A stretch of 62,839 bases of DNA, the filler included, from Gemmatimonadota bacterium (GTDB lineage: Bacteria; 4572-55; J002), in the NCBI GenBank assembly GCA_003697105.1. It is 6 parts of 5 records of this genome, joined end to end, with 100 filler letters (N's around TTAATTAATTAA, not from the genome) between each part and the next. Parts side by side here need not be neighbours in the genome. Positions count along the whole stretch, not along the records: positions 3,488 to 16,977 come from RFFQ01000095.1; 5 more parts are not named here. One strand, given 5' to 3'. Numbering within the stretch: position 1 is the first letter of the stretch; the number at the start of each line of letters is the position of its first letter. Positions 6,861-14,828 of this stretch are shown here, piece by piece. Below the pieces are notes generated by a model that saw only the letters and a list, made by a program, of their open reading frames with translations, ran no database searches and was not told where the DNA came from. The translations under genes were made by a program, and so were the position numbers.

Positions 6861-6948
6861 TAAAAATCCCCCTTTGCTATTGACAGAAATTCCGCTCGGG
6901 ACGTTATTATCTAACCTATTTCAACCTCACAACATAACACCGGTATGT

Positions 6949-9057
6949 ATGGCACCAAAACGAGCACATCTTTTATTTTTTCTAAGCCTTTGGGGGTTTT
7001 ATGTGTGGCTTCTTTGCCCAACACTTTATTGGGAGGATAGTGGCGAATTTATCGTCGCGGCGACTAATTTGGGTGTGGCGCACACACCCAGTCATCCCCT
7101 TTATGTTCTGTGGGGCAGGATTTTTTCGTTACTTCCATTGGGTTCGATTGCCTTCCGGTTAAACCTGATGTCCGCCGTATTTGCCGTCGGTACGGTGGTA
7201 GGGATCGCCTATTTACTGCCGAATCGATTCAATTTTTGGGGGGCACTGATTGCCGCCGTGACGGTACCCTATTGGGAGTTTGCCTTTGCTGCGGAAGTTT
7301 ATACCCTTAATAATTTCCTTCTTTTTTGGTGTCTGTTTTTCCTGATTCGCTACCGGCTGACGGCAGAAGCACACCAACTTTATGGCTTTGCCTTTTTTTA
7401 TGGATTGGCGCTGACTAACAATCCGAGTCCTATCTTTTTCGCACCGATTTTTGCCCTTTTTTTACTGATTTTCCACTGGCGTTCTGGCGGTATCCGCGGG
7501 GGGGTTCTGGGGACGGCATTGGTTTGCTTTGTATTACCCTTAACGCTCTATGGCTATGCTCTAGTTCGCTCCCCCGTGGACCCGGTCCCGGATTGGGGCG
7601 ATGCGGAATCCCTGAAAAATTGGTGGTGGTTGCTGAGCGGTAGTGAATTTGGACCGAAAGTGACCGCTGCCTCTGATGTGCCGGAAACCGGATTTTGGCA
7701 GTCCGTGCTTCAATTTATACAAGATTTGCCGGCAACGCTCAATTGGGGCGTACTGGGGCTGGCGGGGATAGGTCTTGCGGTGCTTTTTACTACCCAACCT
7801 CTCATTTCAGGGGTGTTTGTTCTACTGGCAGGAATGAATGTTCTTTTTTCCTTCCGGTTCTGGGGGGTGAGTTTTGCGTTACCGGGCTATCTAGGGATAT
7901 TTTATTTACTTTCGGCGGTTTTTGCAGGTTATGGGGCATCGTTTCTGATCCAGCGGTTTCGGTGTTTTTCTCCTATCGTCCGGGGGGTTATGTGGGCTGG
8001 TCTGGTGGGGTTGGTGGTGCCTAATGCGCTTCAATTGATCGAACAACATCCGGCACGAAAAACATCGGCGTATCATTATAGCCGGGGGGTGCTGGCATCG
8101 ATTCCTGAAGCGTCTAATGTCATCTATTTGACCGAGAACACCATCGATTGGTTTGGAGTATTGTATTTACAAGTGATCGAGCGTCGCCGGGAAGCTGTGG
8201 TGACGGTCTATGCTCCCTATTTACGCTATCACTGGTACCGGACGCAGGTGGGTGCGGGTTATCCTGCTTTGGTGGTGCCGGCGGAGGGGGGGATTCATTC
8301 TTTTTGTAATGAAAATTTACATAATTTCAGGATCGTCTATACTCCAGACCAAACGTTTGCTTTACCACCGCGCCAAACGCGTATTCGTGGCTTGGTGTAT
8401 GAGCTTTTACCGGCGCCGTCTCGTTCCCCGCATGATCGGAATTTAGGCGATTACACCTTCGCCCGAATCAATGATGGCTCCGAGGCGGTTAAACGACGAT
8501 ATTCCTTGCTTCATGGCTACCGGGGTGACTTTCTCCTCCGCCGGAACCAACCGGGTTTAGCACTTCGAGAATACCGGCAAGCCATTCAAATCGACCCGGA
8601 AAATGCGAAATTACACTATAATTTAGGGGTGGTGTACCAACAACAGAATGCCACTGACCTTGCCAGACAGGCGTACCGGCATGCGATAGCCTTAAATGCG
8701 AACTTTGCACCCGCCTATTATAATTTGGGTACACTGGCTCAAGATCAAAACGATTTTGCTCAGGCAGAAGCATACTACCGACAGGCAATTGAACGCGACC
8801 CCACCTATGCGCGGGCGTATGATGCTTTAGGTGACCTGTATCTGCGTCAACGCCGTTTTGATGTTGCTCAGCAAATGTATCTTCATGCTATTGAAGTCGA
8901 TTCTACGTATGCAGATGCGTATAAAGCACTCGGTTTATTGAGCTTTCATATTTTCCACCAACCCCGGCAAGCCCGTTTGTATTTGGAGCACTATCTCCAA
9001 CTCCGCCCCCATACTCAGGAGGAAGAGGTACGTTCGGTGTTGAAGTCCTTGCCATAA
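6949..9057 (+). CDS. DUF2723/TMEM260-like GT-C membrane protein with C-terminal TPR repeats
   Basis: 'PTLYWEDSGEF...LGVAHTPSHPLY', AEVYTL, many TM helices, several TPRs (HYNLG, AYYNLG, AYDALG). Confidence 0.85.
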   Translation: MAPKRAHLLFFLSLWGFYVWLLCPTLYWEDSGEFIVAATNLGVAHTPSHPLYVLWGRIFSLLPLGSIAFRLNLMSAVFAVGTVVGIAYLLPNRFNFWGALIAAVTVPYWEFAFAAEVYTLNNFLLFWCLFFLIRYRLTAEAHQLYGFAFFYGLALTNNPSPIFFAPIFALFLLIFHWRSGGIRGGVLGTALVCFVLPLTLYGYALVRSPVDPVPDWGDAESLKNWWWLLSGSEFGPKVTAASDVPETGFWQSVLQFIQDLPATLNWGVLGLAGIGLAVLFTTQPLISGVFVLLAGMNVLFSFRFWGVSFALPGYLGIFYLLSAVFAGYGASFLIQRFRCFSPIVRGVMWAGLVGLVVPNALQLIEQHPARKTSAYHYSRGVLASIPEASNVIYLTENTIDWFGVLYLQVIERRREAVVTVYAPYLRYHWYRTQVGAGYPALVVPAEGGIHSFCNENLHNFRIVYTPDQTFALPPRQTRIRGLVYELLPAPSRSPHDRNLGDYTFARINDGSEAVKRRYSLLHGYRGDFLLRRNQPGLALREYRQAIQIDPENAKLHYNLGVVYQQQNATDLARQAYRHAIALNANFAPAYYNLGTLAQDQNDFAQAEAYYRQAIERDPTYARAYDALGDLYLRQRRFDVAQQMYLHAIEVDSTYADAYKALGLLSFHIFHQPRQARLYLEHYLQLRPHTQEEEVRSVLKSLP

Positions 9058-9102
9058 ACCATGATTTTGGGGGTGGCAGGCTTCAAAATCAAATTTTCTC
9101 CC

Positions 9103-9131
9103 TTGACAGTTCTGATGGTGGGTTTTATATT
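9103..9131 (+). promoter_or_regulatory. Sigma70-type promoter of the ABC exporter operon leader
   Basis: TTGACA (9103-9108)-17 bp-TATATT (9126-9131). Confidence 0.8.
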
Positions 9132-9172
9132 CGGCTAACTTGCAGTAAAACTCGATTTTTTGAGGAATTATA

Positions 9173-9325
9173 ATGATAATCCGTATGAATCATTTTCACT
9201 TTAATCTCTGGCACATGAAAGGGTGCGTTTTCATGATGAACATGAACGCTAATTTTTGTTCCCTTCGCCGGCTGGTACCTACCGGCGATATTGGTGTTTC
9301 AGGGGAGGAGTCTATCCATCGGTGA
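9173..9325 (+). CDS. Putative 50-aa leader peptide (uORF), not in ORF track
   Basis: GAGGA RBS then ATG; MIIRMNHFHFNLWHMKGCVFMMNMNANFCSLRRLVPTGDIGVSGEESIHR*; lies between the promoter and tandem terminators. Confidence 0.55.
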   Translation: MIIRMNHFHFNLWHMKGCVFMMNMNANFCSLRRLVPTGDIGVSGEESIHR

Positions 9326-9354
9326 GATTCAGCGGTAACTAAGAGATTGAGCAC

Positions 9355-9399
9355 AAGCCACGGATATGACTTCTACCGTATCCGTGGCTTATTTTGTTT
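9355..9399 (+). terminator. Leader terminator/attenuator hairpin 1
   Basis: AAGCCACGGATATG / CGTATCCGTGGCTT 14-bp stem (1 GU), 8-nt loop, followed by ATTTTGTTT. Confidence 0.75.
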
Positions 9400-9424
9400 A
9401 AACGGCAACCTCTCTTGGGTTGGT

Positions 9425-9465
9425 AAGCCACGGATTCAAATACTGAGTCCGTGGCTTTTCTTTTT
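9425..9465 (+). terminator. Leader terminator/attenuator hairpin 2
   Basis: AAGCCACGGATTCA / TGAGTCCGTGGCTT 14-bp stem (1 GU), 5-nt loop, followed by TTCTTTTT. Confidence 0.85.
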
Positions 9466-9527
9466 GGTGTGATCTACGAAATCGGGATTTGTACTCATCA
9501 TTTAACATCCAAAATGGAGATAGAACA

Positions 9528-11408
9528 ATGGGTCACAAGCTCAAACAACTTTGGCGTTTGATGCAGGGTGAAGAAAAACGGTACTGGGGAGCGATTTTAG
9601 CACTCGGTTTTGCTACTGTATTTGTATTTATGGTGCCGCTGGTGGTACGGATCACCATTGATTCGATCATCGGTGATAAACCCCTTGATGCGCCCGGCTG
9701 GATTGTCTCCGCCATTCACCGGGTGGGGGGCGTTGAGTTTTTGCAACACCATTTATGGGTGATTGCCTTGATAATGGTTGTGTTGACCGCCGGACAGGGC
9801 GTGTTCATGTATCTTAAAGGTCGTTGGTCGGCAGAAGCAGCAGAATCTATGGCAAAACGACTGCGAGAGCAGTTATACGACCATTTACAAAAACTCCCAT
9901 TTGCCTACCATTCCCGGGCGGAAACCGGTGACCTCATTCAGCGGTGTACCTCGGACGTAGAGACGATCCGCCGCTTTTTTGCGGTGCAATTTGTGGAAGT
10001 AGGACGGGCGCTAATGATGCTTGCGTTGGTCTTGCCCATTATGCTTTCCTTAGATGTGCAGATGACTCTGGTGGCAATGGCGGCGGTGCCGGTTATTATT
10101 GCTTTTGCCGTCTTCTTTTTCATTAAAGTGAAAGCCGCTTTTCAACTTTCGGATGAAGCTGAAGGTGAACTTTCTACCGTGTTGCAGGAAAATTTAACCG
10201 GTATTCGTGTGGTACGGGCGTTTGCGCGGCATGATTATGAAATCGATAAATTTGATGCGAAAAATGTTGATTTTCGGGATAAAACATACCGTTTGATTAC
10301 CCTGTTAGCACTGTATTGGGGGCTTTCGGATTTAATTTGTCTAAGCCAGATTGCGGCAGTGCTTGTTGCGGGGGCATACTTTGCTACACAAGGCACGCTG
10401 ACGCTGGGCACCGTGGTTGTGTTTGTCACGTATGAGGGGATGTTGTTGTGGCCTATCCGTCACATGGGACGGGTACTGACCGATATGGGCAAAGCGTTAG
10501 TCTCTATCGGGCGAATTCAGGAGATTCTGGATGAACCTCAAGAGGATATGCTCCAGGGGTATCCACCTGAGGGACATGATACATTGAAAGGTGAGTTGGT
10601 TTTTGACCGGTTGTCGTTTGGTTATACTCCAGATTTGCCGGTGTTGAAGGAGGTTTCCTTCCGCATTCAACCGGGACAAACTGTGGCGATCATGGGTCCC
10701 ACAGGAGCGGGTAAATCGACTCTCGTCAACCTAATTCCGCGCCTGTATGATTACCAGCAGGGTTCTATCCGGCTGGATGGGCGTGAATTGAACACGTATG
10801 ACCGTCACTGGCTACGCCAACAAATCGCGATTGTCCTCCAGGAGCCTTTTTTGTACTCCAAAACGATCCGTGACAACATCCGCTTGAGCCGCAAAAGTGC
10901 ACCAGACCGCGAGGTGTATGACGCCGCTTCGGTTGCATCGATTCATGACGTCATCCTTGATTTTGAAAAAGGGTATGATACCGCGGTGGGAGAGCGGGGG
11001 GTAACGCTTTCCGGTGGGCAGAAACAGCGGATTGCGATCGCCCGGGCAATTTTGCAAAATGCCCCCATCCTCATTTTTGATGATTCGCTCAGTGCGGTGG
11101 ATACCGAAACTGAAGCCAAGATTCAACGGGCATTGGCGCAACGAGCCGGACGGGCAACAACGATCATCATTGCGCACCGCTTGACGACGGTGAAACATGC
11201 GGATTTGATTCTGGTACTGGAAGACGGGCGGGTAACGCAAATTGGTAATCATGACCAACTTATGCGGCAAGATGGCTTATACCGCCGCATCTGGAACATC
11301 CAACATGCTTTGGAGCAGGATATTGCCGATGAAATCGGTGAATCGAACGAATTTTATCCGGTGGATGATGATTCCCGGATCGATGAACCGGTCTTAACCC
11401 GTTCGTAA
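9528..11408 (+). CDS. Heterodimeric type IV ABC exporter, subunit 1 (TMD+NBD)
   Basis: TM domain, GPTGAGKS, LSGGQKQR, degenerate Walker B ILIFDD; GGAGA RBS. Confidence 0.95.
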   Translation: MGHKLKQLWRLMQGEEKRYWGAILALGFATVFVFMVPLVVRITIDSIIGDKPLDAPGWIVSAIHRVGGVEFLQHHLWVIALIMVVLTAGQGVFMYLKGRWSAEAAESMAKRLREQLYDHLQKLPFAYHSRAETGDLIQRCTSDVETIRRFFAVQFVEVGRALMMLALVLPIMLSLDVQMTLVAMAAVPVIIAFAVFFFIKVKAAFQLSDEAEGELSTVLQENLTGIRVVRAFARHDYEIDKFDAKNVDFRDKTYRLITLLALYWGLSDLICLSQIAAVLVAGAYFATQGTLTLGTVVVFVTYEGMLLWPIRHMGRVLTDMGKALVSIGRIQEILDEPQEDMLQGYPPEGHDTLKGELVFDRLSFGYTPDLPVLKEVSFRIQPGQTVAIMGPTGAGKSTLVNLIPRLYDYQQGSIRLDGRELNTYDRHWLRQQIAIVLQEPFLYSKTIRDNIRLSRKSAPDREVYDAASVASIHDVILDFEKGYDTAVGERGVTLSGGQKQRIAIARAILQNAPILIFDDSLSAVDTETEAKIQRALAQRAGRATTIIIAHRLTTVKHADLILVLEDGRVTQIGNHDQLMRQDGLYRRIWNIQHALEQDIADEIGESNEFYPVDDDSRIDEPVLTRS

Positions 11409-11494
11409 GGGGGGACGTGACGCCACTCACCCATTTTGATCTAGTTGTTTTAGGATTGTCCGTTATTTTTGCCCTATTTAATCCGGAGGGGATG

Positions 11495-12268
11495 ATGAAA
11501 AAAGCATTCAAAACCACTTTTGATGAGATCCCAGCCTTGTATGATGAAGTTCGTCCAACGTATCCAGCACCTTTAATCGAGGATATTATCACGTTGTCAA
11601 ATTTGCGGGACAACGCCTCGATTGTTGAGATTGGGTGCGGAACAGGTCAGGCGACAACGCCTTTTTTAGAACGGGGTTATTCCGTGCTCGCAGTGGAGTT
11701 AGGGCAACATCTGGCGGAATTTACCCGGCAAAAATTTGCAAATTATGCCCATTTTGCTGTTGAAGTGGCGAGTTTTGAAGCGTGGCAACCCCCAGATTCG
11801 CAATTTGATCTGTTGATCGCCGGGCAGGTGTTCCACTGGATTGAACCGGAATTGGGGTTGAACAAAGCGGCATCCATCTTAAAGCCGAATGGGTCGATTG
11901 CCCTCTTTTGGAATACAGATGTCTCTTGGGAAACGCCGTTTTACCACGCAACAAACGCCATCTATGAACGTTTCTATGTGGAACGTCCTAAAGCCCAAAA
12001 ACCGGGTACAGGGTCGGATTTATACGCCGAACATCTCGCCCAACATCCTGACTTTATAAAATTTCAGACCCGTATCTATCCGTGGCAGGAAACGTACACC
12101 AAAGAACGGTACTTTAAACTATTGGATACCTTTTCCCCGCACCGGGTTCTTGAACCGGAGGTACGGCATCAATTTTATGATGAACTGGCACAAGTGGTTG
12201 ACCAATTTGGGGGAAATGTTACTCGATTTTATGAAGCTGTATTGCTCATCGCTAAACGAAAGGACTAA
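11495..12268 (+). CDS. Class I SAM-dependent methyltransferase
   Basis: YDEVRPTYP, VEIGCGTG motif I, FDLLIAGQVFHW, LKPNGSI; GGAGGG RBS supports start at 11492/11495 rather than 11417. Confidence 0.9.
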   Translation: MKKAFKTTFDEIPALYDEVRPTYPAPLIEDIITLSNLRDNASIVEIGCGTGQATTPFLERGYSVLAVELGQHLAEFTRQKFANYAHFAVEVASFEAWQPPDSQFDLLIAGQVFHWIEPELGLNKAASILKPNGSIALFWNTDVSWETPFYHATNAIYERFYVERPKAQKPGTGSDLYAEHLAQHPDFIKFQTRIYPWQETYTKERYFKLLDTFSPHRVLEPEVRHQFYDELAQVVDQFGGNVTRFYEAVLLIAKRKD

Positions 12269-12271
12269 CTC

Positions 12272-12820
12272 ATGTTTAAATGGCAGATTGATGACCATCT
12301 GGAATTAGGTCTGTTGGAGTGGCGTCATGCTGAAGAATTATTCGCTGTGGTCGATGCGAATCGAGCCTATCTGCGGGAGTGGTTGCCGTGGGTGGATGGA
12401 TCGAAAACGGTCGCGGATTCTCTGGATTTTATCCAGCGCAGTGCCCAGCAATGGGCAGATAACCGCGGTTTTCAAGCGTGTATCCTCTTCAAGGGCAATA
12501 TTGCCGGAATGATCGGCTTTCATCGGGTCGATTGGCAGGATCACAAGTGTGAAATCGGTTATTGGCTTCGGGCAGATTTACAAGGGCAGGGTATCGTGAC
12601 TAAATGCTGTCAGGCATTAGTTGACTTTGCCTTTACCGAATGGCAGATGAATCGAGTTGAAATCCACTGTGGTGCCGGAAACATCAAAAGTCAGGCAATT
12701 CCGGTACGGTTGGGGTTTGTGCAGGAAGGTATTCAACGTCAGGCGGCAAAATTGCGCGATCAGTTTGTTGATCATGTCATCTTTAGCCAGTTAAGGGACG
12801 AATGGAGTGCCAGACGTTAA
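12272..12820 (+). CDS. GNAT N-acetyltransferase, RimJ/RimL (YdaF-like) family
   Basis: NRAYLREWLPW, EIGYWL, QGQGIVT, NIKSQAIPVRLGF. Confidence 0.92.
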   Translation: MFKWQIDDHLELGLLEWRHAEELFAVVDANRAYLREWLPWVDGSKTVADSLDFIQRSAQQWADNRGFQACILFKGNIAGMIGFHRVDWQDHKCEIGYWLRADLQGQGIVTKCCQALVDFAFTEWQMNRVEIHCGAGNIKSQAIPVRLGFVQEGIQRQAAKLRDQFVDHVIFSQLRDEWSARR

Positions 12821-12932: not shown

Positions 12933-14828
12933 ATGTCATCTTATGAAGCATTTCAAGAAGAAGATTATTCCAAACGGTTTGATCTCGCACTTTGGAAGAA
13001 AGTGTTGCGGTTTACGCTACCACACAAAAAGTATATGATTTTACTGGCAGTATTTATGGTTTCACTAGCGGCATTGGATGCATCCTTGCCCTTGCTCACG
13101 ATGTACGCCATTGATCATTTTATTGCCAAGAACACGCTGGAGGGGTTACCTCTCTTTGTGTTGATTTATCTGGTGATTATTATCGGATTTTCGTTGGTTG
13201 TGTTTTGCTTTATTTCGATTGCCGGACGGATTGAAACGTATGTCTGTTATGATATTCGTACAGCCGGTTTCAAGCGGTTGCAGGAACTTTCCTTCAGTTA
13301 TTTTGATCGAAAACCGGTCGGTTGGTTAATGGCACGTATGACCTCCGATATTCAGCGTTTATCGGATACCATTGCTTGGGGTGTGGTCGATTTTGTCTGG
13401 GGAACAACGATGATGGCAGGTATTGCGCTGGTGATGCTCTATCTCAACTGGAAAATAGGGCTGATTGTGCTGACCGTTGTGCCGATGCTGGCGATTGTGA
13501 GCCTCTATTTCCAAAAGATGATCCTCAAATCGTACCGTAATGTTCGTAAATTGAATTCCCGGATTACCGCGAGTTTCAATGAGGGCATCATGGGGGCAAA
13601 AACGACGAAGACGTTGGTGCGCGAAGCAGAAAATCTGCAAGAATTCAAGGAACTCACTGGCGGGATGTACCGGTCTTCCGTTTTAGCGGCGGTACAGTCG
13701 TCGCTCTATTTACCATTTGTGCTGGTGATTGGTGCCATCGGATCGGGATTAGCCATCTGGTTTGGGGGTTCGGGAGTCATTGCGGGCACCCTCACCTACG
13801 GAACGTTGGTTGCGTTTATCTCGTATGCCCAGCAGTTTTTTAATCCGGTACAGGAACTTGCCCGTATTTTCGCCGAGTTGCAGAATGCGCAAGCGTCTGC
13901 CGAGCGAGTGATGTCTATGATTGAAACCGAACCGGAAATTAAAGATGACCCGCAAGTTCTACAACAGTACGAAAGGGTACACCATCCACCCCAAAATGGG
14001 AAGCAACGCGGTGTAAGTACTACCAGAGTGATGTCCCAACAAGACCGGAGTGTCCCCCGGATGAGAGGTCAGATCGAGTTTTGTCATGTGGATTTTGCCT
14101 ACAAGGAAGGACAACACGTCCTCTCGGACTTTAATCTGACCGTCCGTCCGGGGGAAACCATCGCCTTGGTAGGCGAGACCGGTGCCGGGAAAAGTACCAT
14201 TGTGAATCTGGCTTGCCGGTTTTACGAACCCACCGGCGGGATCATCAAAATTGATGGTACGGATTACACCCGGTTACCGCTCCACTGGATTCATTCAAAC
14301 TTGGGTGTGGTGTTACAATCTCCCCATTTATTTAGTGGTACCATTTTGGAAAACATCCGCTATGGGCGGTTGGATGCCACCGATGAACAGGTGGTAGAGG
14401 CGGCAAAGTTGGTACATGCGCATCACTTTATCACTACGTTTGAAAACGGCTATCATACGGAAGTGGGCGAGGGGGGTAGTTTGCTCTCCACCGGGCAGAA
14501 GCAGTTGATCTCGTTTGCACGTGCGATATTAGCCGATCCTGCCCTGTTTATTTTAGATGAAGCGACTTCTTCAGTGGATACGGAAACTGAGCAACTCATC
14601 CAAAAAGCGATTGATCGCGTACTGGAAAACCGTACCAGTTTCATCATTGCCCACCGGCTTTCAACCATCCGGGCGGCAGACCGAATTTTAGTGCTCGAAT
14701 ATGGCAAGATCATCGAACAAGGCAACCACCATGACCTATTGTTGAAAAAGGGTCATTACTATAACTTGTACACCCAACAGTTTGTGCATGAACATGAGGA
14801 AGTCATGCTCGGGGCTTGTCAAGCGTGA
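12933..14828 (+). CDS. Heterodimeric type IV ABC exporter, subunit 2 (TMD+NBD)
   Basis: GETGAGKS, degenerate signature LSTGQ, canonical Walker B FILDE, IAHR. Confidence 0.95.
   Translation: MSSYEAFQEEDYSKRFDLALWKKVLRFTLPHKKYMILLAVFMVSLAALDASLPLLTMYAIDHFIAKNTLEGLPLFVLIYLVIIIGFSLVVFCFISIAGRIETYVCYDIRTAGFKRLQELSFSYFDRKPVGWLMARMTSDIQRLSDTIAWGVVDFVWGTTMMAGIALVMLYLNWKIGLIVLTVVPMLAIVSLYFQKMILKSYRNVRKLNSRITASFNEGIMGAKTTKTLVREAENLQEFKELTGGMYRSSVLAAVQSSLYLPFVLVIGAIGSGLAIWFGGSGVIAGTLTYGTLVAFISYAQQFFNPVQELARIFAELQNAQASAERVMSMIETEPEIKDDPQVLQQYERVHHPPQNGKQRGVSTTRVMSQQDRSVPRMRGQIEFCHVDFAYKEGQHVLSDFNLTVRPGETIALVGETGAGKSTIVNLACRFYEPTGGIIKIDGTDYTRLPLHWIHSNLGVVLQSPHLFSGTILENIRYGRLDATDEQVVEAAKLVHAHHFITTFENGYHTEVGEGGSLLSTGQKQLISFARAILADPALFILDEATSSVDTETEQLIQKAIDRVLENRTSFIIAHRLSTIRAADRILVLEYGKIIEQGNHHDLLLKKGHYYNLYTQQFVHEHEEVMLGACQA

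Follow-up and report, generated by a model that had tools for sequence, protein, structure and literature searches.

A conserved leader RNA with twin terminators that probably allows an efflux-pump operon to be transcribed only upon ribosome stalling

Why should the genes for an ABC exporter be preceded by a short open reading frame and by two terminator-like hairpins whose arms have the same letters? This question is raised by a locus of a Gemmatimonadota bacterium (assembly GCA_003697105.1) that lies in a stretch of DNA of 62,839 nucleotides, filler included, referred to below as the window. A first-pass annotation of this DNA had proposed a leader-peptide attenuator with interchangeable hairpin arms. 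The features of the locus are as follows, with positions counted along the window.

6874-9057: ORF of the upstream TPR gene, with its stop at 9057, just 5' of the terminator-like hairpin
9062-9091, plus strand: terminator-like hairpin of the upstream TPR gene, 11 pairs, tail AATTTTCTCC; it ends the preceding transcription unit
9103-9131, plus strand: predicted sigma-70-type promoter TTGACA-17-TATATT, 11 of 12 consensus positions
9162-9166, plus strand: Shine-Dalgarno-like GAGGA, 6 nt 5' of the uORF ATG at 9173
9173-9325, plus strand: leader ORF (uORF), 50 codons plus TGA
9197-9208, plus strand: candidate segment -1, upstream partner of segment 0 inside the uORF; weak here, 4 + 3 pairs
9302-9324, plus strand: segment 0, the uORF's 3' end, with complementarity to hairpin 1 (5' arm and loop); candidate antiterminator of terminator 1
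9322-9342, plus strand: mini-ORF of 6 codons whose GTG overlaps the uORF stop TGA; role uncertain
9355-9368, plus strand: segment 1, the 5' arm of hairpin 1
9377-9390, plus strand: segment 2, the 3' arm of hairpin 1; its U-rich tail is 9391-9399 (predicted terminator 1); alternative partner of segment 3
9425-9438, plus strand: segment 3, the 5' arm of hairpin 2, identical in its letters to segment 1
9444-9457, plus strand: segment 4, the 3' arm of hairpin 2; its U-rich tail is 9458-9466 (predicted terminator 2)
9516-9520, plus strand: Shine-Dalgarno GGAGA of the first ABC gene, with the ATG at 9528
9528-11408, plus strand: ABC exporter half-transporter 1 (ABC1), transmembrane and ATPase domains (PF00664, PF00005)
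11417-12268, plus strand: class I SAM-dependent methyltransferase, found between the ABC genes in this genome only
12272-12820, plus strand: GNAT acetyltransferase, RimL/RimJ-like, under the curated cut-offs
12933-14828, plus strand: ABC exporter half-transporter 2 (ABC2)

The elements named in the first-pass annotation were all located. The promoter sequence is present at 9103-9131; promoter-like sites between 8800 and 9800 number 2, against 1.8 ± 1.5 in shuffles, which is not above chance. The ribosome binding site and the 50-codon uORF are present with GAGGA six bases ahead of the ATG, as is the GTG mini-ORF that overlaps the TGA. The two 14-bp U-tailed hairpins with the same arms were confirmed at 9355-9390 (hairpin 1, 14 pairs, loop of 8, 7 G-C pairs) and at 9425-9457 (hairpin 2, 14 pairs, loop of 5, 7 G-C pairs), and their stems form identical 10-bp inverted repeats 70 bp apart. 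Three terminator-like sites were observed, compared with 1.1 ± 1.2 in shuffles. The fold energies of the two hairpins were determined to be -22.8 and -22.9 kcal/mol, and the proposed swap, in which the 3' arm of hairpin 1 pairs with the 5' arm of hairpin 2, is possible, folding at -25.4 kcal/mol (-22.6 kcal/mol for the 2:3 duplex). The minimum-energy fold of 9135-9530 has a z-score of -5.1, with 0 of 100 shuffles equally stable, and it contains the AAGAGA/TCTCTT outer helix that had been drawn around hairpin 1. Hairpin 2 ends only 71 nt from the start of ABC1, with no usable promoter within this interval.

A dispersed REP-like repeat had been named as an outcome that would count against an attenuator, and this candidate was rejected after a genome-wide search. 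The exact arm pattern occurs at this locus only in the 4.18-Mb genome, and with 2 mismatches allowed there were 29 matches genome-wide, against 32 for the reversed control. The genome contains 681 terminator-like hairpins, which give 10 same-strand pairs within 150 nt; the pair in the window is the only one of the 10 that is a tandem with identical arms (8/8).

The same plan recurs in relatives. The regions upstream of genes with an ABC1 protein at least 52% identical to the query, where upstream DNA was present, make up a set of 14 loci, and in 12 of these (L009-L014, L044-L046, L048, L069, and L070) a leader ORF is followed by hairpins of the same type. L045 closely resembles L012, and L046 closely resembles L014, so the 12 were counted as 10 distinct leaders. 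The hairpins are absent at the other two loci, L015 and L047, which are one Cloacimonadota sequence. Including the window, 11 distinct leaders thus have this layout upstream of orthologous heterodimeric ABC exporter genes, and they come from all three genomes examined of the window's phylum, from Firmicutes genomes, and from metagenome contigs. The comparison of orthologous upstream regions that the first-pass annotation had suggested therefore gave ten further leaders of this kind, with covarying stems. A hairpin model built without L069 and L070 recovered both hairpins of L070 and one of L069; against 54 sources, its other matches were confined to leader-bearing loci, plus one weak match in L023. 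A tblastn search of a plasmid collection with ABC1 returned one match at 48% identity and generic ABC proteins, with no information on leaders. A search of sequencing runs gave DNA runs only, all from a single hot-spring metagenome study, and one of these runs may be the source.

A leader ORF of 22-50 codons with a Shine-Dalgarno sequence is found at the equivalent position in all 11 ABC leaders, and its stop codon lies 17-61 nt from hairpin 1 (29 nt in the window). Neither the length (22-50 residues) nor the sequence of the peptides is conserved, although the ABC proteins are 52-65% identical; this is as expected for a regulatory ORF. No arrest motif or codon run common to all of the leader peptides was found. 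Several of the Firmicutes relatives contain a second small ORF between the terminators and the ABC gene.

The layout is not limited to exporter genes. A methyltransferase gene in the L012 genome also has a canonical copy of the leader (L076) ahead of it, and the module is therefore portable. The leader of a GNAT gene (L078) has the twin hairpins, but its 0:1 helix is not significant (125 of 300 shuffles as good), and for this reason it was not counted as canonical. Orthology between the methyltransferase and GNAT of the window and the leader-controlled enzymes of the L012 genome was considered and rejected, since the similarity is at the level of the superfamily only.

The stems are maintained as paired RNA. 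Eight of the 10 stem pairs have changed on both sides and 97.3% of the cells are paired; this value was reached by 0 of 500 shuffles, and controls with slid positions gave 34-49%. G-U pairs are present within the stems. The letters of the arms differ by lineage, being GCCACGGA in the window, GCCGCG in L069, GCCCGC in L048, and GCCAYAGG in Firmicutes, and yet they match between the two hairpins of one genome: within a genome the two stems differ on average at 3.7 of 20 positions, versus 6.2 between genomes. The loops vary in both letters and length (3-17 nt), with no conserved unpaired positions.

When the whole twin-hairpin region or entire leaders were aligned with MAFFT, several arms fell out of register, and the pairings of segment 0 with segment 1 (0:1) and of segment 2 with segment 3 (2:3) were consequently evaluated with RNAduplex on coordinates. 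The 2:3 pairing is available in 10 of the 11 ABC leaders, at -15.4 to -22.6 kcal/mol, the exception being L014 at -4.8. In L013, hairpin 2 has drifted yet remains complementary to arm 2. Cognate 2:3 pairs score only modestly above non-cognate pairs (9.4 versus 8.2 of 10 stem columns), a small gap that follows from the conservation of the arms. Some constraint other than the 2:3 pairing could also be what keeps the arms identical. The first-pass annotation had assigned the removal of both terminators to this swap. Its 2:3 helix is retained in 10 of the 11 leaders; by itself it cannot abolish terminator 1, since arm 3 has not yet been made when hairpin 1 folds.

The element that the first-pass annotation had missed is segment 0 (9302-9324), which is able to base-pair with arm 1 and the adjoining loop. 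In each of the 11 leaders, a search over the whole leader located the best partner of arm 1 plus loop in the final third of the leader ORF. The window's own 0:1 helix has an energy of -19.2 kcal/mol with 17 pairs in four blocks, and it is the best partner over the entire leader, the next best stretch reaching -11.5. It is also the weakest 0:1 helix of the set: 20 of 300 shuffles were as good in the window, compared with 12 in L044, 4-7 in L009, L010, and L070, and 0 in L011, L012, L013, L014, L048, and L069. Non-cognate segment 0 regions placed on hairpin 1 of the window gave -3.6 to -12.9, apart from that of L069, which at -23.2 beats the window's own. A 6-bp match to arm 1 at uORF codons 3-4 (9179-9184), seen in one prefix fold, was rejected as a second antiterminator because the best pairing there is the -11.5 stretch, compared with -19.2 for segment 0.

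Segment 0 has upstream partners as well. In seven Firmicutes-type leaders it also pairs with the leader's own Shine-Dalgarno sequence (0-5 of 300 shuffles as good), and in L070 and L048 it pairs with the first codons of the ORF at probabilities above 0.9. No helix sequestering the Shine-Dalgarno sequence is present in the leader of the window (40 of 300 shuffles as good), where the minimum-energy partners in segment -1 are 9197-9200 with 9321-9324 and 9206-9208 with 9302-9304, at probabilities of 0.6-0.97. The conserved letters fall in differing reading frames across the leaders, and L012 carries a triplet of quite different yet mutually matching sequences.

We consider it rather probable that these elements constitute a leader-peptide attenuator of transcription that senses the ribosome, acts as a relay, and controls the ABC1-methyltransferase-GNAT-ABC2 operon. 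The conserved leader RNA probably lets the efflux-pump operon be transcribed only upon stalling of the ribosome. Segments -1, 0, 1, 2, 3, and 4 would form a chain in which each can pair with either neighbor, and segment -1 in the Firmicutes relatives would be the Shine-Dalgarno region of the uORF itself. In the off state, the uORF would be untranslated, or translated smoothly to its stop, and segment 0 would be occupied, either through pairing with segment -1 or by the terminating ribosome on top of it; 1:2 and 3:4 would then fold, and RNA polymerase would stop at either of the two serial terminators. In the on state, a ribosome delayed early in the uORF would cover segment -1, and the freed segment 0 would catch arm 1 and the hairpin 1 loop as they emerge. 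Arm 2 would be left unpaired, so that terminator 1 would be absent, and it would catch arm 3, which has the letters of arm 1, before arm 4 is made, so that terminator 2 would be absent too. A single sensed event would in this way be relayed through both terminators.

We infer both the order of folding and the dependence on the ribosome. At equilibrium, holding arm 1 upstream costs the window 17.5 kcal/mol relative to the fold with both terminators. When arm 1 was sequestered in the equilibrium folding of 8 leaders, hairpin 2 was still obtained in 7 of them, with 2:3 found only in L009. The relay therefore depends on a kinetic argument. By analogy with bmrB-bmrCD and ermK, our guess is that the inducer may be a translation inhibitor or general translation stress.

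The genes of the operon were compared with known proteins. Both ABC proteins match PF00664 and PF00005 only (plus overlapping ATPase families), with no peptidase domain. Among solved bacterial half-transporters, Sav1866, TM288, and a TmrAB-type chain outscore BmrC and BmrD against ABC1, and the TmrAB-type chain and TM288 do so against ABC2; the TmrAB-type chain is described only as a multidrug-resistance ABC transporter. YheH matches ABC2 across the ATPase domain only. Assignment to the BmrCD orthologue group was rejected, the ABC proteins being no closer to BmrC/BmrD than to TM287/288 or TmrAB. The methyltransferase scored 46 bits against a cut-off of 212 and its nearest solved relatives are small-molecule methyltransferases, and an Erm-like assignment was rejected. 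A tie between the operon and the ribosome through an Erm-like methyltransferase and a RimL-like GNAT was likewise rejected as support. In the operons of relatives, the two ABC genes are adjacent and the methyltransferase and GNAT genes are absent. No regulator gene linked to the locus was found.

The same alternative helices could in principle answer to something other than the ribosome, with a protein or small ligand binding hairpin 1 or the leader and the uORF being incidental. This is unlikely in our judgment, and the evidence that speaks for it is the resemblance to the Rfam trpB motif (RF04312) and the rather conserved stem letters among the Firmicutes leaders. An E-value search of window positions 8900-9700 against Rfam gave sub-threshold matches only. 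In the three leaders of this phylum, the twin-hairpin region matches the full-length trpB motif, at 35 bits in the window, 30.2 in L070, and 29.3 in L069, but these scores are far under the gathering score of 59, and 0 of the 8 other leaders match at E ≤ 1. The motif was therefore rejected as a family assignment, at about half of its gathering score and with the inner P1 stem missing from the alignment. At gathering thresholds, Rfam 15 families gave no match in 16 related loci, and the earlier statement that the leader belongs to no named RNA family holds at this threshold. A binding site for a ligand or protein is also hard to reconcile with loops of 3-17 nt that have no conserved unpaired positions and with arms that change wholesale across lineages. 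Moreover, every leader has an ORF with a Shine-Dalgarno sequence and with segment 0 at the 3' end of that ORF, and a ligand switch needs neither.

There might also be no switch at all. The small ORF could encode a functional peptide, one that is exported or modified for example, and the hairpins could be a fixed tandem terminator whose leakiness sets the ratio of peptide mRNA to transporter mRNA at a high value. Bacteriocin operons are known in which a small gene and a partial terminator precede the genes for export and modification, and a methyltransferase and an acetyltransferase do accompany the exporter here. Nevertheless, this arrangement appears improbable: the peptides of 22-50 residues have no common sequence despite the identity of 52-65% among the ABC proteins, the conserved letters of the ORF fall in differing frames and pair with RNA partners, and the methyltransferase and GNAT genes are missing from the operons of relatives. 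The ABC proteins are without a peptidase domain, and a bacteriocin or RiPP precursor with its dedicated exporter was rejected on the absence of a C39 peptidase domain and the lack of peptide conservation. A fixed terminator would in addition leave both segment 0 and the matching arms of the two hairpins unexplained.

The mechanism given in the first-pass annotation differs from the proposed relay in how hairpin 1 is opened. There, a ribosome at about 9320-9360, either finishing the uORF or translating the GTG mini-ORF, would melt the base of hairpin 1 and the outer helix, after which 2:3 pairing would remove both terminators. The mini-ORF and outer helix do exist in the window, a ribosome ending at 9342 would extend to about 9355, and in L048 a GTG right after the leader stop opens a 26-codon frame across hairpin 1. 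However, the uORF stop lies 17-61 nt from hairpin 1 across the leaders, beyond the reach at which a terminating ribosome would cover arm 1. Apart from that GTG in L048, recurrence of the mini-ORF was not evident among the relatives that were read, nor was that of the outer helix, and reinitiation ORFs are not a recurrent feature of the leaders. The polarity is also reversed, in that read-through is predicted during normal translation and not during stalling. A leader-peptide attenuator with interchangeable arms is supported by the comparative evidence, and the route to hairpin 1 through the mini-ORF and outer helix, which was not seen to recur in the relatives read, we regard as quite doubtful.

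That the palindromes act as DNA, as two repressor operators with coincidental U-tails, is very improbable: two identical 10-bp inverted repeats at this spacing would suit such sites, and some attenuator-like palindromes have been reassigned to transcription-factor sites according to PMC2965389, but in all leaders the T-runs come after the repeats on just one of the two strands, the halves of a palindrome are separated by anything from 3 to 17 nt, pairing persists by way of G-U, which is meaningless in DNA, there is no linked regulator gene, and the sites are about 220-330 nt downstream of the promoter.

The ribosome-sensing relay can be put in a more general form, which we advance tentatively and with rather less confidence than the attenuator itself. 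The leaders may represent an undescribed, portable, cross-phylum class in which a swap at the initiation region of the leader ORF is passed along five exclusive segments (-1, 0, 1, 2, 3/4) and disarms two identical serial terminators. The loop of hairpin 1 would mimic the Shine-Dalgarno or start region of the leader in most members, and the device would report specifically on ribosome arrest at initiation or directly after it, the hallmark of inhibitors of the peptidyl-transferase center, and drive a small regulon of exporter, methyltransferase, and acetyltransferase. No published description of this leader was found in open-access full text and bioRxiv.

Leader-peptide attenuators that respond to antibiotics have been described for a handful of resistance genes, each of which was solved individually. 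As judged from sequence comparison, the leader described here is a conserved and readily recognized module, with comparative support extending from a small hot-spring phylum to Clostridia and Halanaerobiales. The design suggests a very low leak, from the two serial terminators, combined with a switch-like response from one ribosome sensor. The hairpins would be kept identical so that the antitermination signal can be handed from the first to the second. If this is true, the identity of the arms is explained, a searchable RNA family becomes available with which inducible genes for efflux and drug modification can be annotated in uncultured bacteria, and a compact part is provided for tight inducible expression.

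The trpB motif (RF04312) is a riboswitch candidate for which the right shoulder of P1 has been proposed as the antiterminator (PMC11109978). By the account in that source, it resembles the window in having two hairpins, the second an intrinsic terminator, and in its location in 5' UTRs, often of ABC transporter genes; its transporters are of the amino-acid type, unlike the type IV exporters of the window (PMC11109978). A closer parallel in gene content is bmrB-bmrCD of Bacillus subtilis, where a heterodimeric ABC exporter is under ribosome-mediated attenuation (PMC4191407). As described there, bmrB has, and the window is predicted to have, a short translated ORF ahead of a heterodimeric ABC exporter, followed by an intrinsic terminator and by alternative antiterminator and anti-antiterminator helices, with read-through proposed to occur when the ribosome slows (PMC4191407). 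The single terminator of bmrB is inside the coding region (nt 60-162 of bmrB; PMC4191407), whereas the window, in a comparison made with bmrB by description, has two predicted terminators with identical arms 3' of the stop codon and a proposed relay helix. The second small ORF that precedes the ABC gene in Firmicutes relatives recalls bmrX, as that ORF is presented in PMC10351889.

The ermK leader of Bacillus licheniformis is, as portrayed in papers that cite it, a leader-peptide attenuator with two adjacent Rho-independent terminators, as predicted for the window (PMC4335068, PMC5418344). It controls an rRNA methylase rather than an exporter. Translational attenuators of the ermC type resemble the Firmicutes relatives in having a helix that sequesters a Shine-Dalgarno sequence and is opened by a ribosome stalled early on the leader ORF. 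In the relatives, however, the sequestered sequence is the leader's own and not that of the resistance gene, and the output would be transcription termination; the leader of the window itself has no such helix.

The trp leader of Escherichia coli, as summarized in PMC4191407, shares with the model for the window a chain of mutually exclusive helices that is read by the position of the ribosome on a leader ORF, and in attenuators of this type, as proposed for the window, the 2:3 antiterminator forms first and is less stable than the terminator (PMC4191407). The window differs from them in that 1:2 is itself a predicted terminator, in that arms 1 and 3, and likewise arms 2 and 4, have the same letters, and in having no runs of one regulatory codon. 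Unlike in the trp leader, the ribosome in the window would never reach segment 1, so that the signal would be carried by segment 0 and segment -1.

The organization of the DNA upstream of the heterodimeric ABC exporter operon was determined to be as follows.

9057: end of the upstream TPR gene
9062-9091: terminator-like hairpin belonging to the TPR gene
9103-9131: near-consensus promoter, TTGACA-17-TATATT (11 of 12 positions)
Six bases 5' of the uORF ATG: GAGGA box
9173-9325: uORF of 50 codons
29 nt between the uORF and hairpin 1: gap
9355-9390: hairpin 1, 14 pairs, then a U-rich tail (-22.8 kcal/mol)
9425-9457: hairpin 2, 14 pairs, then a U-rich tail (-22.9 kcal/mol)
9528: ATG of ABC1, the first half-transporter, with GGAGA, 71 nt past hairpin 2

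The promoter, the ribosome binding site with its 50-codon uORF, and the twin U-tailed 14-bp hairpins with the same arms, all reported in a first-pass annotation, are present at 9103-9457, and that observation is confirmed. The outer ten letters of each arm are identical between the two hairpins. The whole leader is far more stable than its shuffled counterparts (fold z = -5.1). The stretch joins more than one contig; the leader is found on contig C165 (about 73,000-73,400 there), and positions 23412-55261 are contig C169.

The possibility that the hairpins are a dispersed repeat, which the first-pass annotation had named as an outcome that would refute its reading, was ruled out. Within the 4.18-Mb assembly the exact arm pattern was found at a single locus, the leader in the window, and with two mismatches allowed the number of matches (29) was equal to that for the reversed control (32). 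Among the 681 terminator-like hairpins returned by a whole-genome scan, 10 pairs lie on the same strand no more than 150 nt apart, and identical arms were found only in the pair from the window. The two-mismatch search also located a hairpin at 32579-32612 of contig C48 of the same genome, with arms that are one compensated pair off those of the window.

Relatives of ABC1 were sought in a set with a single genome for each species, which gave 36 loci, in metagenome contigs, which gave 25, and in two other genomes of the phylum. Upstream DNA accompanies an ABC1 that is at least 52% identical at 14 loci, 12 of which carry a leader ORF with a ribosome binding site, followed by hairpins (L009-L014, L044-L046, the metagenome contig L048, and L069 and L070 from the two genomes of the phylum). 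L045 closely resembles L012, as L046 does L014, and these loci therefore represent ten distinct leaders, or 11 with that of the window. Two hairpins are present in 10 of the 11; in L014 one is present and the other has decayed. A hairpin covariance model built without L069 and L070 recovered both hairpins of L070 and one in L069. This comparison of the regions upstream of orthologous ABC pairs, suggested with the initial reading, gave a hairpin layout conserved in ten distinct leaders besides the window. The leader element is real, and its conservation extends across phyla. In the upstream DNA of L015 and L047, a single Cloacimonadota sequence, the leader ORF is present and the hairpins are absent. 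At this ABC pair (54% identity) the Shine-Dalgarno (SD) sequence of the leader ORF can pair with the 3' part of the ORF, and there are no GCC-type U-tailed hairpins; this leader may represent the same sensor with another output stage. At L008, L016, and L050, where ABC1 has the same level of identity, the sequence ends at the gene start. At more distant ABC loci, neither reading of the upstream regions nor a scan of 54 sources with the hairpin covariance model showed the hairpins.

Fifteen hairpins were aligned; both sides vary in 8 of the 10 stem pairs, and 97.3% of the cells are paired. Neither value was reached by any of 500 shuffles, and pairing in the slid-partner control was 34-49%. G-U pairs are found in the stems, and the U-tails of the leaders occur on one strand only. 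The test for covariation proposed in the first-pass annotation was thus positive, and it shows that selection acts on the hairpins as RNA structures. The letters of the arms vary by lineage and are the same, or nearly so, within a genome: GCCACGGA in the window, GCCACG in L070, GCCGCG in L069, GCCCGC in L048, and GCCAYAGG or ACCACAGG in the Firmicutes leaders. Across seven genomes the stems differ on average at 3.7 of 20 positions within a genome versus 6.2 between genomes. Recent duplication fails to explain this likeness because the loops and spacers are not conserved.

For the discussion of pairing, the arms of hairpin 1 (terminator 1) are designated segments 1 and 2, and those of hairpin 2 (terminator 2) segments 3 and 4. 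It had been proposed that pairing of segment 2 with segment 3 would remove both terminators. This helix is available (-25.4 kcal/mol in the fold of the window; -15.4 to -22.6 kcal/mol in 10 of the 11 leaders), but it cannot by itself defeat terminator 1, since hairpin 1 has already folded by the time arm 3 is transcribed. The 3' end of the ORF in each leader contains a sequence, segment 0, with complementarity to arm 1 and to the hairpin 1 loop. A scan of each whole leader, starting 35 nt 5' of the ORF and stopping at hairpin 1, placed the best partner for arm 1 in the final third of the ORF in all 11 leaders, and the 3' end of segment 0 falls between 22 nt upstream and 10 nt downstream of the last base of the stop codon. 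The number of shuffles of the flanking region, out of 300, that performed as well was zero for L011, L012, L013, L014, L048, and L069, 4-7 for L009, L010, and L070, 12 for L044, and 20 for the window. Segment 0 of the window (9302-9324) pairs at -19.2 kcal/mol through 17 pairs in four blocks, and the next best site in the leader is at -11.5. In a nine-leader matrix the segment 0 regions of other genomes gave -3.6 to -12.9 kcal/mol with hairpin 1 of the window; that of L069, tested separately, gave -23.2.

Segment 0 also pairs with the SD region of its own leader in seven Firmicutes-type leaders (-16.6 to -24.5 kcal/mol; 0-5 of 300 shuffles), and therefore the loop of hairpin 1 mimics the leader initiation region in this type. 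The conserved letters of these leaders occupy different reading frames in different leaders, and in L012 the SD region, segment 0, and the arm and loop of hairpin 1 have a different yet mutually matching sequence. The upstream partner of segment 0, segment -1, is placed differently in the phylum of the window: it corresponds to the first ORF codons in L070 and likewise in L048, which has the same layout (pairing probabilities >0.9 in both), and lies beside the SD in L069. It is weakly present in the window (9197-9200 and 9206-9208), where the helices of segments 0 and -1 are the weakest in the family.

From this anatomy and the known attenuators we infer a chain of segments in which each could pair with either neighbor: -1:0, 0:1, 1:2, 2:3, and 3:4. 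Without a ribosome, -1:0 would form, followed by both terminators. A ribosome that reaches the stop codon would cover segment 0 during the synthesis of arms 1 and 2, and again both terminators would form. A ribosome delayed at initiation or shortly afterward would instead cover segment -1 and leave segment 0 free to take arm 1; arm 2 would then take arm 3, and the polymerase would pass both sites. Arms of the same letters would let one sensed event disarm two terminators, which would explain why they are kept alike. The mechanism would depend on the order of folding and not on equilibrium; when arm 1 was barred from downstream pairing, hairpin 2 was still in the minimum-energy fold of 7 of 8 leaders, and in the window this state is less stable than the two-terminator fold by 17.5 kcal/mol. 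The most probable reading of the element is a transcription attenuator that senses ribosomes and relays the signal through two terminators with the same arms. The core of the original reading as a ribosome-sensing switch is supported, and its mechanism is corrected by the addition of segment 0.

The gene order of the operon is ABC half-transporter 1, class I SAM methyltransferase, GNAT acetyltransferase, and ABC half-transporter 2. The nearest solved relatives of the methyltransferase are small-molecule methyltransferases. The methyltransferase and GNAT genes (11417-12820) separate the two ABC genes, which are adjacent in all relatives examined, and the two genes are therefore an insertion peculiar to this genome. 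The genome of L012, which also has an ABC leader, contains a canonical copy of the leader 5' of a methyltransferase gene (L076, 516-775; -1:0, -20.8; 0:1, -17.2, 2 of 300 shuffles; 2:3, -12.2 kcal/mol) and a twin-hairpin leader 5' of a GNAT gene (L078, 669-781), for which the 0:1 helix is not significant. Neither enzyme is an orthologue of those in the window. The same enzyme classes under the same kind of leader fit a response to a toxic small molecule; the module seems portable, and the genes that follow it may form a small regulon.

The leader peptides (22-50 aa) have no common sequence or codon run, which argues against the sensing of one amino acid. A similar Ile-Arg-x-Asn stretch starts four of them (window, L009, L010, and L015), with different Arg codons in the window and L009; this hints at a nascent-peptide effect, though the stretch is not general. 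The bmrB-bmrCD system is reported to respond to chloramphenicol, erythromycin, and lincomycin (PMC4191407), and the ermK and mef/mel attenuators are also described as drug-responsive (PMC5418344, PMC4335068). By analogy, translation inhibitors would be the likeliest inducers.

The window leader and 18 related loci matched no Rfam 15 family at the gathering score, in agreement with the initial view that no named family could be assigned. The nearest is the trpB motif, described in Firmicutes and Fusobacteria as a candidate riboswitch with two hairpins (PMC11109978), with full-length matches at 9357-9466 of the window (35 bits), 3455-3550 of L070 (30.2), and 3358-3469 of L069 (29.3); eight other leaders gave no match at E <= 1. 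Membership was rejected, since these scores are below the cut-off of 59, and the likeness is one of architecture. The trpB motif might itself be an attenuator of related design. A description of this leader was not found in searches of open-access full text and bioRxiv.

In several of the Firmicutes relatives, the region from terminator 2 to the ABC gene contains a second small ORF whose SD is strong, at the following positions.

L009, 2894-2950: second small ORF
L010, 2893-2949: second small ORF
L011, 552-620: second small ORF
L013, 1499-1552: second small ORF

The peptides from L009 and L010 are nearly identical, and no counterpart is evident in the window. An element of roughly 100 nt with a potential long hairpin is located 3' of terminator 2, twice in L010 (about 2590-2800) and once in L009 (about 2747-2850), and the L009 genome has a similar one 3' of an unrelated terminator (L080, about 800-900); it looks like a small dispersed repeat. 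The second small ORF recalls the cryptic ORF bmrX described for the bmrBCD mRNA of B. subtilis (PMC10351889). The ABC proteins of the window are type IV half-transporters of a generic kind and do not correspond to BmrC/BmrD in particular. In its working mode the leader would resemble the ribosome-mediated attenuators bmrB-bmrCD and ermK, and it has two terminators in common with ermK as described (PMC4335068). It differs from bmrB in that two terminators are present, outside the ORF, with identical arms that would be linked by a relay helix.
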